DNA from: Alphaproteobacteria bacterium
GTDB taxonomy: Bacteria > Pseudomonadota > Alphaproteobacteria > CAAGCB01 > CAG-977
Length of the DNA stretch: 64,000 nucleotides
Assembly (NCBI GenBank): GCA_900768185.1
Contig: CAAGCB010000012.1
Span: forward strand, 15,461-79,460
Direction: 5' to 3'
Below are positions 26,877 to 33,961 of this stretch, piece after piece. Positions within the stretch are counted from its first letter, which is position 1. Every line of letters starts with the position of its first letter. The notes below the pieces were generated by a model. The model was not told the origin of the DNA and did not search any database. It saw nothing but the letters and a program-made list of their open reading frames with translations. The translations under genes were made by a program, and so were the position numbers.

Positions 26877-27907
26877 CCGAAGACAGAATTGTCAGTCCCG
26901 CCAAACGCGTCGGCGACGAGGATTTCGCCAACATGCGTCCGAAATCGCTGGCGGATTTTACGGGACAGCGCGCGGTTTGCGAAAATTTAAAGGTGTTCGT
27001 CACGGCGGCGCTGACCCGCGGCGAAGCTTTGGATCACGTTTTATTGTTCGGTCCGCCGGGGTTGGGGAAAACGACGTTGGCGCAAATCGTGGCGCACGAA
27101 CTGGCGGTCGGTTTCCGCGCGACCTCCGCCCCCATGATATCCAAGGCGGGCGATCTGGCGGCGATTTTGACGAATTTGGAAAAAAACGACGTTTTGTTCA
27201 TTGACGAAATCCATCGTTTGAATCCCGCGATTGAAGAAGTCCTGTACGCCGCGATGGAGGATTTCCAGCTGGATCTGATTATCGGCGAAGGTCCCGCCGC
27301 CCGTTCCGTGCGGATCGATTTGCAACCGTTCACGCTGATCGGGGCGACGACGCGGTCGGGGCTGTTGACGCAACCTTTGCGCGACCGTTTCGGCATTCCT
27401 TTGCGGCTGGATTTTTACGATCCCGCCGATTTGGAAAAGATCGTGATCCGCGGCGCGGGCGTGCTGAACACAGCCATTACCGCCGAAGGGGCGCGCGAAA
27501 TCGCCAAGCGGGCGCGGGGAACGCCGCGCGTGGCGGGGCGTTTGCTGAAGCGTGTGCGCGACTTTGCCGCGTTCGAAGGAAAAAAGGAAATCGACGCCGA
27601 CATCGCCGATCGCGCGCTGAAACGGCTGGACGTGGACAAGCAGGGGCTGGACATGATGGATCGGCGGTATCTGAACTGCATCGCGCGGAAATACGCCGGC
27701 GGTCCCGTCGGGGCGGATACGCTTGCCGCTGCTTTGTCCGAGGAACGCGACACGATTGAAGAAGTCATCGAACCCTATCTGTTGCAACAGGGGTATCTGC
27801 AACGCACGCCGCGCGGGCGCGTTCTGACCGCGTTGGGGTATAAACATCTGGGATTACCGCCGCCCGCGACGGATGCGGCGGATCTGTTTTCGAACGCGGA
27901 AAAATAG
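26873..27907 (+). CDS. ruvB: Holliday junction branch migration helicase RuvB
   Basis: AAA+ Walker [10 protein letters not shown], Walker [10 protein letters not shown], sensor residues; ATGA overlap with ruvA. Confidence 0.95.
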
Positions 27908-28105
27908 GCTTGCCGCCGTCCGGCGTGGGCGATCGGAAATCTTTGACGGCGCGCCGGCAACGAAAGGTCGCCGACTTTCCCGCATTCGGATTGAAAGCGG
28001 TCTGAAAATTTTTAGCTTGTTATCAATAATAACGGTGTTCGATTTTTGTTGAAAACACGGGGAAAGGTATATATTTTTCATTAGAACGATTAAAAGGAAC
28101 GGAAG

Positions 28106-28762
28106 ATGACCTTACGCCTCTCGTCCGGTGCCGGTTCCAAGAAGGAAGGCACGGAACAACTTGTAGAAAAGTATTTAAAAGACGTCGTTTCCGAAATGCA
28201 CTGCGTCGACGCCGTGACGCGCCATTTCGGCAAAGCCCCCAACCGCTCCGTCGAAGAATACGTGGCAAACGTGTATATGAAAAAACGCCCGTTGAAGGTC
28301 GCCGATAAAACGGCGGCGTTGTTGGCGGTGCGCGAAGCCGAAAGACACTATCGCGGCAAAATTAAAAAAATCCCTCTGCACACCCGTCTGCATTACATGA
28401 CGGGAAACGTCGGCAAAAAGAAAATCGAAGCCGCGATCGTTTGCGGCATCAGTCTGGCGGCGGGGTGCGTCGCCGTGGCGCGCGGGGCTGATCCGGCGGT
28501 CGTTCCGGCGATTCTGGCTGTCGCGGGCGGAACGCTGATGGCTGCGGACTACGCGTTGTATTCGCTGGAACCGAAAAAACACGGCGCCGAAATCCTGCGC
28601 AAAAAGGAAGTGCTGGCGAATTACACGCGCGCGAAACAGGCTCTGTTCGTTTTAAAGGCGATGGAAAAACAACTGACCGCGCGCGGCGGACAGCCGAAAA
28701 ACAAAGCGGCGGACGATGACGGTTTTACTTTTCTTATGTCAAAAAAAGGCGCGGCGCGCTGA
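28106..28762 (+). CDS. Island family A paralog 1: small membrane protein with bilobed hydrophobic segment (unknown function)
   Basis: 218 aa; ~115-aa N-terminal soluble domain, Gly/Ala-rich two-lobe hydrophobic region (residues ~115-160), basic amphipathic tail KQALFVLKAMEKQL shared with paralogs 2-5. Confidence 0.55.
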   Translation: MTLRLSSGAGSKKEGTEQLVEKYLKDVVSEMHCVDAVTRHFGKAPNRSVEEYVANVYMKKRPLKVADKTAALLAVREAERHYRGKIKKIPLHTRLHYMTGNVGKKKIEAAIVCGISLAAGCVAVARGADPAVVPAILAVAGGTLMAADYALYSLEPKKHGAEILRKKEVLANYTRAKQALFVLKAMEKQLTARGGQPKNKAADDDGFTFLMSKKGAAR

Positions 28763-28781
28763 AAAAAAACGGGGGATTGCG

Positions 28782-29435
28782 ATGGCTTTGACGATTTTAA
28801 CGGCTGAAAACGGTCGTCACGAAGACACGGCGAAACTGGTTCGCGACTATTTAAAGGGCGCGATCAAAGTGATGCGCCGCATCGACGCCGCCCGCAATTT
28901 TTACGACAAACCCGCCAATCGCCGCGTCGAACGGGTGGAGGCTTTGCGTTATATGGTCAAAAATCCGTTTTGTGTCAACGATACCGAACGGGCGGGCGAA
29001 ATGCTTGACGACGCTCAAAGATACTATGAGAAGCAAACCAAGGACGCGCCGTTGAAAGTCAAAATGGATTACGCGTTCGGTTGTGTCGGCGCGATGCTGT
29101 TGAAAGACACGTTACTGTACGGGGCGGCGCTGGCGGCGGGCGTGACGGCGGCGGCGATGAACGGCGGTTCGCCCGAATTGATTTGCGGGGCGGCGGTCGC
29201 GGCGGTCGGCATCGCGGGGGTGACGCAAATCGGCGTCGCGATGGGCAAAATGTCGCGTCCGCCGACCAAGGCGGAACGGAAACACCCCGAAACGCTGGAA
29301 CAATACACGGAAGCCAAACAGGCGCTGTTCGTTTTGAAACAAATGAAAAAACAGCTGGCGTCGTCCGTGAAAAACAACAGGGGCAAAGGCGGAAACGTCG
29401 TTGTCCCGATGCCTAACAGGTGCGTCCTTCGCTGA
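28782..29435 (+). CDS. Island family A paralog 2
   Basis: 217 aa from ATG 28782; same architecture; tail KQALFVLKQMKKQL. Confidence 0.55.
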   Translation: MALTILTAENGRHEDTAKLVRDYLKGAIKVMRRIDAARNFYDKPANRRVERVEALRYMVKNPFCVNDTERAGEMLDDAQRYYEKQTKDAPLKVKMDYAFGCVGAMLLKDTLLYGAALAAGVTAAAMNGGSPELICGAAVAAVGIAGVTQIGVAMGKMSRPPTKAERKHPETLEQYTEAKQALFVLKQMKKQLASSVKNNRGKGGNVVVPMPNRCVLR

Positions 29436-29457
29436 TTTTTACGCGAATTAAAAAAAA

Positions 29458-29495
29458 ATCGCTCGACCGATCGGGCGCGGTGTTTCTTTTTTTAC
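29458..29495 (+). terminator. Weak terminator-like element after paralog 2
   Basis: Self-complementary CCGATCGG core followed by tgtttcttttttt. Confidence 0.3.
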
Positions 29496-29574
29496 CGCCT
29501 TTAATAAAAAAAATGTTGGAAAACTGGACAAATAAAGGTATATGCTTTGTCAAGCGGGCGGAAAGGGGGTAAAA

Positions 29575-30156
29575 ATGTCTTTGACAATCGACAATCACCA
29601 AAAAACGACGGGCTTGGACGCGAAAACGGCGGAGGTCGTGGCGGCGTATGTGAACGGGCTGTATTATGCGACAAACGGCGTTCCCCGTGATTTGCGCGAC
29701 GCCGCTGCGGACGCCTATATGAAAGACAATCCGCTGAAAGTCGACGATAAAGCCGCCGCCGTGAAAGAAATCGACGCTTTGACGCGTGAATGCGAAGACG
29801 AAGCGAAGTCGGCATCGTGGCGAACCAAACTGCAATACGAATACGGTCGCAAGGGCGAACGAATCGCCAAACTGGCGATGTTGGGCGCGGCGACCGCCGT
29901 CGGAAGCGTTCTGGCGGCAAACGGCATGCCTTTGGCTTCCTCTTCCGTTTTGTTCGCGGGGCTGGTCGCCATTCAGGGAGGAAACACTCCGACGGATAGG
30001 GAAAAAGCCGATATCGAAAGATACGGCGTAATCAAGCACGGACAGTTCGTTTTGAAAAAAATGAAGCGGGCGCTGACGTCCGAAGATGACAAAGAAAACG
30101 CGTCCGCGGTCAAACGCAAAACCGTGCTGAATTTGAAACGAAACGGCGGACGCTGA
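29575..30156 (+). CDS. Island family A paralog 3
   Basis: 193 aa from ATG 29575 (RBS GGGGG); NGVPR motif in N-domain shared with paralogs 4 and 5; tail GQFVLKKMKRAL; ends NLKRNGGR. Confidence 0.6.
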   Translation: MSLTIDNHQKTTGLDAKTAEVVAAYVNGLYYATNGVPRDLRDAAADAYMKDNPLKVDDKAAAVKEIDALTRECEDEAKSASWRTKLQYEYGRKGERIAKLAMLGAATAVGSVLAANGMPLASSSVLFAGLVAIQGGNTPTDREKADIERYGVIKHGQFVLKKMKRALTSEDDKENASAVKRKTVLNLKRNGGR

Positions 30157-30180
30157 TTTCCGGTCGCCCCTTGGATTTTT

Positions 30181-30220
30181 ACGCCGCGGCATTTGGTGTC
30201 GCGGCGTTTCGCTTTTTTAG
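30181..30220 (+). terminator. Rho-independent terminator after paralog 3
   Basis: ACGCCGCG / CGCGGCGT 8-bp stem with 11-nt loop, followed by ttcgctttttt. Confidence 0.55.
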
Positions 30221-30310
30221 GGCGAAAGCGCGGTTTTCAATAAAAAATATTTGAAGAGTTGGACAAATCGTGTTAATCTTTTTGTCAAACAGACAGGAAA
30301 GGATAAGCAA

Positions 30311-30934
30311 ATGTCTTTGGTTCTCAATTCCGAAAAGGGTATGACGCTGAACGATGTTAAAACGACGATGAAAGTCGCGGCGTATCTCGGCGGCTTGGCG
30401 GAGCAAATCAACGGCGTTCCCCGTCGGTATCGCGACAGCGTCGCCGACGCCTATATGGAAGACCACCCGTTGACAGTCGACGATAAAGCCGCGGCTTACG
30501 ATCTGGTCGGAAAAATGGAAAAGCAATACAAAAAGGAAACCAAATCCGCGTCTTTGGATACGAAGCTGCAATATATGTTCGGCAACAAGGGCGCCGAAGT
30601 CGCCAAAGCGGTCGCTTTGGGCGCGGCGGCGGTCGTCGGCAGCGTGATGGCGGCGCAGGGCGTCGATCAGGCGGCGGCTCCCGCGTTCGTGATGGCGGCG
30701 GGCGCGCTTTGCACGGGGGCGCACGCGGCGACGGTGAACGACAAATATCAGACGAACGCCGTTGAAAAATACGGTGAAGCCAAACGCGCTTTGTTCGCTT
30801 TGAAAAAAATGAAAAAGGCGCTGGCGCCCGAATCGACGTACAAACAGGACGTTCAGGCACTGTACGCGTCCGGTCTGGGCAATCCCGGCGGCATGATCAC
30901 CGCGTTGAATCTGAAACAAAAAGGCGGCAGATAA
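30311..30934 (+). CDS. Island family A paralog 4
   Basis: 207 aa from ATG 30311 (RBS AGGAAAGGA); ends NLKQKGGR. Confidence 0.6.
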   Translation: MSLVLNSEKGMTLNDVKTTMKVAAYLGGLAEQINGVPRRYRDSVADAYMEDHPLTVDDKAAAYDLVGKMEKQYKKETKSASLDTKLQYMFGNKGAEVAKAVALGAAAVVGSVMAAQGVDQAAAPAFVMAAGALCTGAHAATVNDKYQTNAVEKYGEAKRALFALKKMKKALAPESTYKQDVQALYASGLGNPGGMITALNLKQKGGR

Positions 30935-30952
30935 GCCGGAAAAGGAGGAAAT

Positions 30953-31618
30953 ATGTCAATAGGACTGAACGAATCGATGACTTTTGAAAAAGCCGATAGC
31001 GCGACGATATCTCAGGTCTATATGTACTTGGGGGCTTTGGACTGCTTTACGAACGGCGTTCCCGAACGAAAACGCGGAAAGGTCGTCGACGATTTCATGC
31101 AAAAATATCCGTTGCGCGTCGATAATAAAGCCAATGCGCTGAAAACGGTCGAGTCTTTGGAAAAAATGTATGTCGACGCCGTTAAGAAAACGCCTCTGAA
31201 AACAAAAATTCAGGCGGCGTTCGGCATGAAAGCCCCCGAAAACGCTTTTAAGACGGCGTGCGTTTTGGGCGCGGCGGCGGTCGTCGGCAGCGTTATGGCG
31301 GCGCAGGGCGTCGATCATGCGGCGGCTCCCGCGCTCGTCGGCGCGCTGTCGGTCGGCATGACCGCCCTGGCGGCTGTCGTCGGCAAAACCGCGGCGGATG
31401 GAACGGAAGACAAGCCCGAAAAAATCGCAAAGGAAGAATGGAACGTTCAGAAATACGGCGATGTCAAACGCGCTTTGTTCGCTTTGAAAAAAATGAAAAA
31501 GGCGCTGACGCCCGAATCGACGTACAAACGGGACGTTCAGGCGCTGTACGCGTCCGGTCTGGGCAACCCCGGCGGCATGATCACCGCGCTGAACCTGAAA
31601 CAAAACGGCGGGCGCTGA
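30953..31618 (+). CDS. Island family A paralog 5
   Basis: 221 aa; RBS AAGGAGG; C-terminal 55 aa and one hydrophobic lobe nearly identical to paralog 4 at the DNA level; ends NLKQNGGR. Confidence 0.6.
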   Translation: MSIGLNESMTFEKADSATISQVYMYLGALDCFTNGVPERKRGKVVDDFMQKYPLRVDNKANALKTVESLEKMYVDAVKKTPLKTKIQAAFGMKAPENAFKTACVLGAAAVVGSVMAAQGVDHAAAPALVGALSVGMTALAAVVGKTAADGTEDKPEKIAKEEWNVQKYGDVKRALFALKKMKKALTPESTYKRDVQALYASGLGNPGGMITALNLKQNGGR

Positions 31619-31648: not shown

Positions 31649-32776
31649 ATGTCGAACAATGTGGCGGAATTTTTTTCCAAAAAAGGAATTAAAAAATTCA
31701 AAAGCGGCGTGAACGCCTTTAAAAACCTCAGCACGCCGAAAAAGCTTATGGCGGGCGGCGTTTTGGCGGCGGCGTTCGCCGTCGCGACCAACACAGACAA
31801 TTACAGCCGCGTTGAAAACAGATTGAAAGCGCAAACGGTGTACGCGATTATGGAAAACGGCGACACGCTGTGCGCCTATCGGGCGATTCCGATGACGGAC
31901 GCCGATTTCGCGCGGTTGCAAAAATTGGTGAACAACGCGACGAAAACCGAATCGGGGCGCGAGATTTTAAAAGGGCTGTCCGAAACGGGGACGACTTTGC
32001 GCATCGATTATTCGGGCGAGGATAATCTGGGCTATTTTCAGCCCGACGACAATTCGATCTGTCTGGGGCGTCAGCACGGCGACGCGGATTTGCAGTCCGT
32101 TTTGATCCACGAGGGTGAACACGCTTTGCAGAACGGGCGCGTTCCCGAAAGCACCAACGGTTACACGTTTGAATCAAACGCGAAAGTTCAGCGCGTGATG
32201 GAAGCCGATGCGATGACCTTGCAAACGATGTTTTCGTTCGAAATGGCTGAAAAGGGCGACAGCGCGGCGTTGAAAATGATGACGGTCCGTCACAAGGGCA
32301 TGGTGGACGCCTATGCCGACGCTTGCGCAAAATACGGCAAAGGCAGTCCGAAGGCGTTAAAGGAAACGATGCTGAGCTGGTATGACGATAAAAACTATGT
32401 CGCCATCTATGACGAATACATGGCGGCGGAACACGCCGAAAAGGTCGGAGAAACACCGGGGATTTTGTTGCTGTCCCGTTTTTCCAAAGCCTGTGACGCC
32501 GATGCCGTTTTGGCGGGCGCTTGCCGGTATAAAGGCGTGAAATACGCGGGAACGGACGGATCTTTGCTGAATACGCCGCGCACGGCGTGGCTGAATGTGG
32601 AAACGCGCGATAAAATGTCGCGGGTTCACAACCGGCTGGTTTCCAAAACATCGGGCTTCAACGGTGACGACAGCGCGGATAATTTCTATATGTGCAAAGA
32701 CGGTGTCGTGTCTAAACAGACCTATAAACAGATTATCGCGGCGACGGTCGCCCGACGCGCGAATCAAGGACGATGA
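31649..32776 (+). CDS. Island family B paralog 1: HExxH zincin-like putative metallopeptidase with N-terminal signal/anchor
   Basis: 375 aa; N-terminal hydrophobic KKLMAGGVLAAAFAVA; HExxH as LIHEGEHALQNG with Glu-rich segment downstream; no family name recognised. Confidence 0.55.
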   Translation: MSNNVAEFFSKKGIKKFKSGVNAFKNLSTPKKLMAGGVLAAAFAVATNTDNYSRVENRLKAQTVYAIMENGDTLCAYRAIPMTDADFARLQKLVNNATKTESGREILKGLSETGTTLRIDYSGEDNLGYFQPDDNSICLGRQHGDADLQSVLIHEGEHALQNGRVPESTNGYTFESNAKVQRVMEADAMTLQTMFSFEMAEKGDSAALKMMTVRHKGMVDAYADACAKYGKGSPKALKETMLSWYDDKNYVAIYDEYMAAEHAEKVGETPGILLLSRFSKACDADAVLAGACRYKGVKYAGTDGSLLNTPRTAWLNVETRDKMSRVHNRLVSKTSGFNGDDSADNFYMCKDGVVSKQTYKQIIAATVARRANQGR

Positions 32777-32788
32777 GGAGATAAATTC

Positions 32789-33961
32789 ATGTCGAATTCC
32801 ATATCCGAATTCTTTTCCAAATCGGGAATTAAAAAGTTTAAAAACGGCGTGAGGGCTTACGCGGAACGTCAAGCGGGCAAGGTCGTCGCCGCGTCAATGG
32901 TTCTGACGGGGGCGTTCGGCGCCGTCAGCGCGCGTTCCGCCGTTGAACAGATTGAATTGACGCCTTCGCGGGTGACGGCTTACGCCGTTACGGAAAAAGG
33001 CGACACGCTTTGCAGCTATCTGGCGGAAAAAACCGACAGCGCGTCCTTCGCCCGTTTGCAGAAACTGGTCAACAACGCGACAAAAAGCAAAACGGGGTGT
33101 GAAATTCTGAAATGCGTTTCGGAACAGAACACCGTTTTGACGATAGGAGAGGCGGGACGCAACACGGTCGGATTCTTCGTCGCCGATGAAAACATGATCC
33201 GCCTGAACGGCAATTTTGACGACGCGACGTTGCAATCCTGTCTGGTGCACGAAGGAAAACATTCCGCCCAAAACGCTTCGCTGGGCAGAACGCTGGAAAG
33301 CACGAACACTTTTTTGACCAATATCGTCATGTCCCGCGTGATGGAAGCCGACGCCGTCGCGGCGCAGACCAAGTTTTCCTATGAAATGGCACAGCGGGGC
33401 GACAGCGCGGCGTGGAAATCCCTGCGCGAGGAACACGGGGAAATCGCCGACACGTTTGCAAAAAACGCTAAAAAACACGGCGTCGATAAAAAGGAAACGA
33501 TGAAGGAAACCATGCTGGCGTGGTACAAGGATAAAAGCTACACCAAGCTGTATGATCAATCCATGATCGCGTTTTACAAAAACATCGTTCGAAACGCGCC
33601 CGACAATCAAATTCAGGACAGTTTTAAGAAAAGCATCGATACCGACAAATTGATCCGCGCCGTGTGCAAATCGGGCGGCGAAACGTACGCTCGGGACGGT
33701 GCTTTGCTGATGACGCCCGAAACGGCATATCTGTCGCGCTCCGACCAGTTTTCGCTGGAAGCCCTGAATGTCTTTTTGAAACAAAGAACGGGACGCGAAG
33801 ACGTTTCGTCGAAGTTTATGTATCCCGTCGAACGTGACGGATCCGTGTCGAAAAAGACTTTCCTTCAGGAAGATCAGGCGGAGCGTCTGGCGGAAAAGAA
33901 TAAACAGAGTACGGCGAAAACGCAAAAAATCGTTAATAAAATGAATACGCGGACGCGATGA
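32789..33961 (+). CDS. Island family B paralog 2: HExxH zincin-like putative metallopeptidase
   Basis: 390 aa; RBS GAGGAG; HExxH as LVHEGKHSAQNA; collinear with family B paralog 1 across the N-terminal 250 aa; stop TGA overlaps the ybgC ATG (ATGA). Confidence 0.55.
   Translation: MSNSISEFFSKSGIKKFKNGVRAYAERQAGKVVAASMVLTGAFGAVSARSAVEQIELTPSRVTAYAVTEKGDTLCSYLAEKTDSASFARLQKLVNNATKSKTGCEILKCVSEQNTVLTIGEAGRNTVGFFVADENMIRLNGNFDDATLQSCLVHEGKHSAQNASLGRTLESTNTFLTNIVMSRVMEADAVAAQTKFSYEMAQRGDSAAWKSLREEHGEIADTFAKNAKKHGVDKKETMKETMLAWYKDKSYTKLYDQSMIAFYKNIVRNAPDNQIQDSFKKSIDTDKLIRAVCKSGGETYARDGALLMTPETAYLSRSDQFSLEALNVFLKQRTGREDVSSKFMYPVERDGSVSKKTFLQEDQAERLAEKNKQSTAKTQKIVNKMNTRTR

Follow-up and report, generated by a model that had tools for sequence, protein, structure and literature searches.

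A tandem pair of DUF6782 proteins with a predicted gluzincin core and an arginine-terminated tail in gut Alphaproteobacteria

Introduction

What kind of enzymes are encoded by two adjacent and related genes in an uncultured alphaproteobacterium, and on which side of the cytoplasmic membrane might their products act? The window analysed here is a stretch of 64,000 nucleotides of contig CAAGCB010000012.1 (assembly GCA_900768185.1, positions 15,461 to 79,460, forward strand) from a member of the CAG-977 lineage, in which the gene pair at positions 31649 to 33961 is preceded by five genes for small membrane proteins, here called family A. A sequence-only reading of this stretch had proposed the pair to encode zincin-like metalloproteases that are exported or anchored in the membrane. 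With odds slightly better than even (a probability of around 0.55) we consider the two enzymes to be exported proteases that belong to an effector-like repertoire specific to this lineage of gut Alphaproteobacteria and act on envelope, competitor or host proteins. All coordinates are positions in the window unless a locus label (L001 to L040, fetched loci) is given.

Two members of a putative metallopeptidase family

Both window proteins are members of PF20573 (DUF6782, 'Putative metallopeptidase family'), with whole-protein scores exceeding the curated gathering cut-off of 27 bits. The enzyme type is ordinary, and the pair adds two members to a family that is already catalogued as putative metallopeptidases but uncharacterised. 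The genes and their motifs are as follows.

31649 to 32776, + strand: first DUF6782 gene (open reading frame; PF20573 at E 1.1e-38, 133 bits; orthologues in L034, L035, L039 and L040)
32108 to 32122, + strand: HExxH of the first protein, aligned with invariant family columns
32201 to 32212, + strand: EADA of the first protein, E and D columns invariant in 126 homologues
32776 to 32781: ribosome-binding site GAGGAG of the second gene
32789 to 33961, + strand: second DUF6782 gene (open reading frame; PF20573 at E 1.2e-41, 143 bits; AlphaFold model with a predicted local distance difference test score, pLDDT, of 91.2)
33248 to 33262, + strand: HExxH of the second protein, from the family alignment and the AlphaFold model
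33344 to 33355, + strand: EADA of the second protein, from alignment and model, spaced as His86 to Glu113 of IrrE

In a pairwise alignment the two proteins are 43% identical (E 1e-91) and collinear across 365 residues, and His154-Glu155-x-x-His158 carries identical residue numbers in both. The equivalent position of HExxH in two collinear proteins, from which the sequence-only reading had started, is thereby borne out, together with the equivalent position of all strings quoted for it. No Pfam family besides DUF6782 was matched at E<=1 by either protein, which leaves the families M48, M56, M85, M91, SprT and DUF4157, named previously as candidates, without a match; SprT-like proteins and Wss1 appear solely as weak fold neighbours. 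Equally, NCBIfam, PADLOC and PHROGs gave no matches for the window proteins, nor did a search of the PDB by single sequence; no paper mentioning DUF6782 was found and the family has no solved structure.

The PF20573 model describes the core only, with around 240 positions; the leader and hydrophobic module at the N-terminus, the helical region on the C-terminal side and the arginine tail lie outside it. Several other family members possess two DUF6782 domains, and in one representative of 1172 residues (P0148) a proline-rich stretch resembling formin FH1, below the Pfam cut-off, precedes the DUF6782 domain.

Catalytic motif and predicted fold

Conservation of the motif was measured in 126 diverse homologues, among which HExxHxxQ and the downstream EADA motif show no variation, with H154, E155, H158, Q161, E186 and D188 as invariant residues and Y255 and Y300 likewise invariant in DUF6782. 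From the second histidine of HExxH to EADA the distance amounts to 22 to 34 residues across homologues. A candidate third zinc ligand downstream of HExxH, as anticipated for a zincin, is the invariant Glu186 of EADA, located 28 residues past His158 on the next helix.

An AlphaFold model built from the deep alignment of 126 sequences, which replaced an earlier run with 8 close sequences (pLDDT 57, HExxH region below 50), reached a pLDDT of 91.2 and a predicted template modelling score of 0.83. The predicted order of elements is strands 116-120, 128-131 and 136-140, helix 145-165 with HExxH, helix 175-202 with EADA and a subsequent helical domain. The strands and the active-site helix are predicted at pLDDT 96-98 and the helix itself at about 98, which agrees with the zincin-like metalloprotease proposed initially. 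Both points on which the zincin proposal could have failed, a helix around HExxH and a conserved third ligand among homologues, thus turned out in its favour. The window proteins are predicted to be gluzincins with His/His/Glu ligands and an IrrE-like core. In such an enzyme, according to motif and model, His154 and His158 of the active-site helix and the glutamate of EADA on the following helix would hold the metal, Glu155 would activate water for catalysis, and the three-stranded sheet in front of the active-site helix may bind the substrate in extended form.

Comparison with known systems supports this picture to different degrees. Among solved structures, IrrE/PprI alone is linked to the family significantly by sequence, with the family profile matching chains 3dte (E 2.6e-6) and 8slm (5e-6) across the strand-turn-strand that enters HExxH. 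IrrE binds zinc by His82, His86 and Glu113 (PMC5552922). IrrE/PprI and ImmA (MEROPS M78, COG2856) share with DUF6782 the use of HExxH and a glutamate around 27 residues downstream as ligands; DUF6782 proteins, however, are without a Pfam M78 match, differ in the C-terminal domain, which in IrrE consists of helix-turn-helix and GAF-like domains, and add the invariant Q161, D188, Y255 and Y300 and terminal targeting-like modules. Also different from M78, no XRE or helix-turn-helix repressor gene is adjacent, the neighbours being family A, ybgC, tol genes or more DUF6782 copies.

On the level of structure, the top Foldseek matches in the PDB are all zincins, namely selecase (probability 0.97), M1 aminopeptidases, anthrax lethal factor, jannalysin and abylysin, IrrE and Wss1. 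The best matches to the DUF6782 core are minigluzincins (selecase, proabylysin and projannalysin; PDB 4qhf-4qhj, 4jiu and 4jix), with probabilities of 0.92-0.98 and a root-mean-square deviation of 3.0-3.8 Å over 76-84 columns at E-values of 0.07-0.5, which are not significant. The minigluzincins are archaeal proteins of around 110 residues consisting of the core alone, whereas DUF6782 proteins have 300-430 residues including a large helical extension. A viral structure library gave weak IrrE-like and SprT-like matches. Pathogens use HExxH proteases as injected effectors, as exemplified by NleC (M85), NleD (M91) and anthrax lethal factor. Lethal factor is among the weak fold matches, the window proteins match none of these families by sequence, and the likeness to such effectors is conceptual only.

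A C-terminal tail shared with unrelated proteins

The sequence-only reading had missed the C-terminal arginine tail, which links DUF6782 and family A.

32732 to 32773, + strand: tail of the first protein, 14 residues (10.0 bits with the tail matrix; internal 14-mers have their 99th percentile at 2.0)
33917 to 33958, + strand: tail of the second protein

Both window proteins end with a flexible linker, around six hydrophobic residues, a cluster of lysine and arginine and [G/S]-Arg-COOH. A terminal arginine is present in 109 of 135 full-length DUF6782 representatives (81%, with an arginine background of 5%), position -2 is glycine (40) or serine (28), with either of them in 62%, and lysine and arginine are abundant at positions -3 to -6, giving ...[K/R]..[G/S]R as the consensus end. 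A matrix of the last 14 residues, trained solely on DUF6782 tails with the Z group left out, is characterised by proline at -13/-14, hydrophobic residues at -7 to -12 and K/R/Q at -3 to -6, followed by [G/S]-R.

Applied to homologues of family A, of which 102 of 103 end in arginine, this matrix gave a median score of 12.8 bits; in the window, the three downstream family A copies score strongly. For the remaining open reading frames in the fetched loci the median was -11.2 bits and the 95th percentile 3.7. Scores of 10.7-15.4 bits were reached by an isoamylase/GlgX-like protein with CBM_48 and alpha-amylase domains, an AAA_33 kinase-like protein and a protein of 261 residues with a histidine-rich nuclease-like motif. 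A zinc phospholipase C, a leucine-rich-repeat-like (LRR-like) protein and a second nuclease-like protein (247 residues) have basic-plus-arginine ends as well but score only 1.6-3.3 bits, below the background value of 3.7. Among DUF6782 members the tail is equally frequent with and without an N-terminal hydrophobic segment. The loci of unrelated proteins with basic-plus-arginine ends are listed here.

L010, 7706 to 9898
L015, 3997 to 6186
L028, 7790 to 9982
L026, 6747 to 7850
L033, 13852 to 14394, - strand
L028, 2938 to 4200, - strand
L029, 12134 to 12919
L032, 12112 to 12855

As unrelated proteins of the same bacteria bear the tail, a portable targeting or secretion label is suggested. A terminal peptide on a linker that is common to unrelated domains would most simply be a targeting, secretion or docking signal, and the tail that DUF6782 shares with unrelated proteins looks like a shared delivery label, which might be recognised by an export machinery.

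The nearest known analogue seems to be the C-terminal signal of alphaproteobacterial VirB/D4 substrates, which the last six residues of the tail resemble: in Agrobacterium this signal is hydrophilic, positively charged and rich in arginine (PMC8525350). On pTiC58 (L038), the VirF-like protein, VirD2 and VirD5 end with ...RSRSGLSR, ...GRGGNRR and ...RDKAFNR, respectively, so that three of five type IV substrates end in arginine, preceded by a stretch rich in arginine, glycine and serine. With the DUF6782 tail matrix, the final six residues of VirF and of VirD2 reach +7.3 and +7.4 bits, respectively. Differences, however, are evident: VirE2 and VirE3 have no terminal arginine, the hydrophobic block at -7 to -12 of the DUF6782 tail is without counterpart, and this tail contains lysine as often as arginine and has a near-invariant [G/S]-R end.

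Other known terminal signals were considered and set aside. An encapsulin-type cargo peptide has a different motif and membrane proteins are unlikely cargo; a type I secretion signal does not agree with a lysine-rich tail; sorting of the GlyGly-CTERM or PEP-CTERM type is disfavoured by a hydrophobic block that is not long enough to form a membrane helix; and CendR or dilysine host motifs do not fit the variable spacing.

The N-terminal module

31649 to 31786, + strand: N-terminal module of the first protein
32789 to 32932, + strand: N-terminal module of the second protein

Special to the subfamily of the pair is an N-terminal module with a conserved basic leader of 27-35 residues, a hydrophobic core of about 15 residues and subsequent small residues, which is kept in 87 distinct orthologue N-termini. 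The hydrophobic core comprises 14-17 residues with a 15-residue Kyte-Doolittle value of 1.5-2.1 and is followed by AxA-like sites, instead of which a lipobox-like cysteine is found in 10 of the 87. In the family at large such a hydrophobic segment is rare, being present in just 21 of 124 representatives and absent from 98. The leader motif [D/E]F[F/M]xKxxIKKFx[S/C]G also starts some members without a hydrophobic segment. One further occurrence of this motif lies close to the C-terminal end of the phospholipase C-like protein in L026.

The hydrophobic stretch resembles the core of a signal peptide, preceded by an unusually long basic leader, more than it does a membrane anchor, and export or anchoring of the window proteins, as proposed by the sequence-only reading, is plausible. 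A Sec-type export signal or a weak anchor would place the catalytic domain outside the cytoplasm.

The upstream family A genes

28106 to 28762, + strand: first family A gene (span of all five, 28106 to 31618)
28782 to 29435, + strand: second family A gene
29575 to 30156, + strand: third family A gene
30311 to 30934, + strand: fourth family A gene
30953 to 31618, + strand: fifth family A gene

The products of these five tandem genes are predicted small membrane proteins of 193-221 residues with a two-helix hairpin, all five ending in arginine, and are without a Pfam family. An N-terminal helical part is followed by two hydrophobic helices rich in glycine and alanine, a basic helix (YGxxKxALFxLKKMKKAL) and the arginine-ending C-terminus. 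Among homologues, which form 108 clusters, the few with source names come from gut 'Acetobacter sp.' or metagenome-assembled genomes (MAGs) of Alphaproteobacteria, and the last 35 or so residues (YASGLGNPGGMITALNLKxxGGR) are near-identical between species in proteins otherwise diverged to around 40-55% identity. By the positive-inside rule both ends of family A are predicted to be cytoplasmic. With this topology, and as the two families occur apart in other genomes, the earlier suggestion that the proteases act on family A finds no support. A strong terminator-like hairpin of 12 pairs with a T-run (30181 to 30207, + strand) separates the third family A gene from the fourth, which makes a common transcript of all seven genes improbable.

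Distribution, genome context and variation within the species

A single genome scan for VHEARHAxQ, derived from an 11-sequence subset of the family, gave 30 loci, 29 of which have titles of Alphaproteobacteria MAGs that are uncultured and of gut, rumen or faecal origin (Acetobacter sp. CAG:977, UMGS1574, HGM16795, UBA3864, RGIG and horse-faeces MAGs); there are several loci and paralogues per genome. The thirtieth, L027, is a DUF6782 fragment with neighbours of alphaproteobacterial type, and its contig was probably placed in the bin of Limosilactobacillus gorillae by mistake. A second profile search for homologues retrieved mostly the same close relatives, without taxonomic placement of distant ones, and tblastn searches of plasmids and phages were without matches.

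Tandem DUF6782 arrays range from 3 to 9-10 genes, with 9-10 in L006 (3723 to 12703, Acetobacter sp. CAG:977), 6 in L005 and 5 in L009; L004 also harbours an array. The arrays of L004, L006 and L009 are located directly upstream of putative yajC-secD-secF genes, called by size, predicted membrane segments and end sequences without a family search. Phospholipase C- and LRR-like proteins are among the neighbours of DUF6782 genes, and in L002 (8716 to 9909) an ankyrin-repeat protein of 397 residues, without the arginine tail, is encoded directly upstream of a DUF6782 gene. Elsewhere in the window, two paralogous open reading frames of around 235 residues with similar N-termini (...ITLYLDTPxP...) occupy 49218 to 49922 and 53490 to 54209, both on the - strand.

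Within the species, the locus is variable.

32750 to 33790, + strand: divergent segment compared to L040 (74-89% nucleotide identity; flanks 96-100%)

L040, a strain of the same species from a Hadza sample, carries two family A genes where the window has five: A1 and A2 are missing and a single gene stands in place of A4 and A5, with flanks 98-100% identical (window 27889 to 29478 and 30941 to 31443). Between window and L040 the synonymous divergence (dS) is 0.40 in the divergent segment versus 0.006 for tolQ. Such allele replacement and change in copy number are typical of genes facing outside partners.

Weighing export against other explanations

Several observations weigh against the two proteins being exported proteases. 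First, no secretion-system gene turned up in the fetched sequence, which at around 640 kb samples only a small part of these genomes: tblastn with Agrobacterium VirB1/4/6/8/9/10/11 and VirD4 gave nothing in these loci and the window, and Pfam scans of large neighbouring open reading frames found no secretion ATPases, the identified proteins being TolC-like, MlaD, topoisomerase, phosphorylase and Bpt/ATE transferase. Literature on secretion or type IV secretion in the RF32 lineage was not found, nor did a broader search on RF32 and gut genomes retrieve any. Second, the N-terminal hydrophobic stretch is short and weak, with 19-residue Kyte-Doolittle maxima of 1.15 and 1.42 versus 2.1-2.4 for TolQ/TolR. 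Third, every Foldseek match is non-significant (best E 0.07), and the fold assignment thus rests on topology and motifs, with metal binding, catalysis and location of family members all being predictions. Finally, the pair is packed tightly against ybgC-tolQRAB, an arrangement kept in several species, which could instead mean a housekeeping role in the envelope. The ybgC-tol linkage, though, is not universal: a Z-type pair resides elsewhere in L001, and family A alone is found at the ruvB-ybgC site in L037 and after rplQ in L036. Since the Z-type pair and family A also occur elsewhere, the tol-pal linkage looks positional, and the genes look like accessory genes parked at operon boundaries.

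A different explanation of the tail is that it serves as a recognition tag or tethered pseudo-substrate, with DUF6782 enzymes binding or trimming proteins that end in ...[K/R]..[G/S]R, such as family A, the isoamylase and others, and with the proteases' own tails lying in the active site to keep the enzyme latent, much like minigluzincin zymogens. Tail and protease family co-occur in the same genomes, often in adjacent genes, and the strictness of the terminal arginine suggests that the free carboxylate and the guanidinium group are read. Moreover, proabylysin and projannalysin (4jiu, 4jix), in which latency is provided by a C-terminal segment lying in the cleft, are among the nearest structural relatives. 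Nevertheless, we regard this explanation as unlikely. Still less probable is a retained zincin scaffold that functions as another metal-dependent hydrolase or as a binding protein instead of a peptidase, although the peptidase activity of DUF6782 is a prediction on which no paper was found and the invariant Q161, Y255 and Y300 are not standard catalytic residues of the thermolysin type.

Significance

The two genes alone add little beyond a prediction that has been sharpened to a gluzincin with a confident model. New observations are the shared arginine-terminated tail, the gene arrays and the turnover of alleles, which make the locus moderately interesting. What matters is that one gut-restricted lineage has expanded a protease to arrays of as many as ten genes and has placed one arginine-terminated tail both on these proteases and on enzymes and membrane proteins unrelated to them. 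Should the tail serve for secretion or docking, it would provide a simple sequence rule to list the exported proteins of common uncultured Alphaproteobacteria of the human gut and would also help to find the machinery by which it is read.
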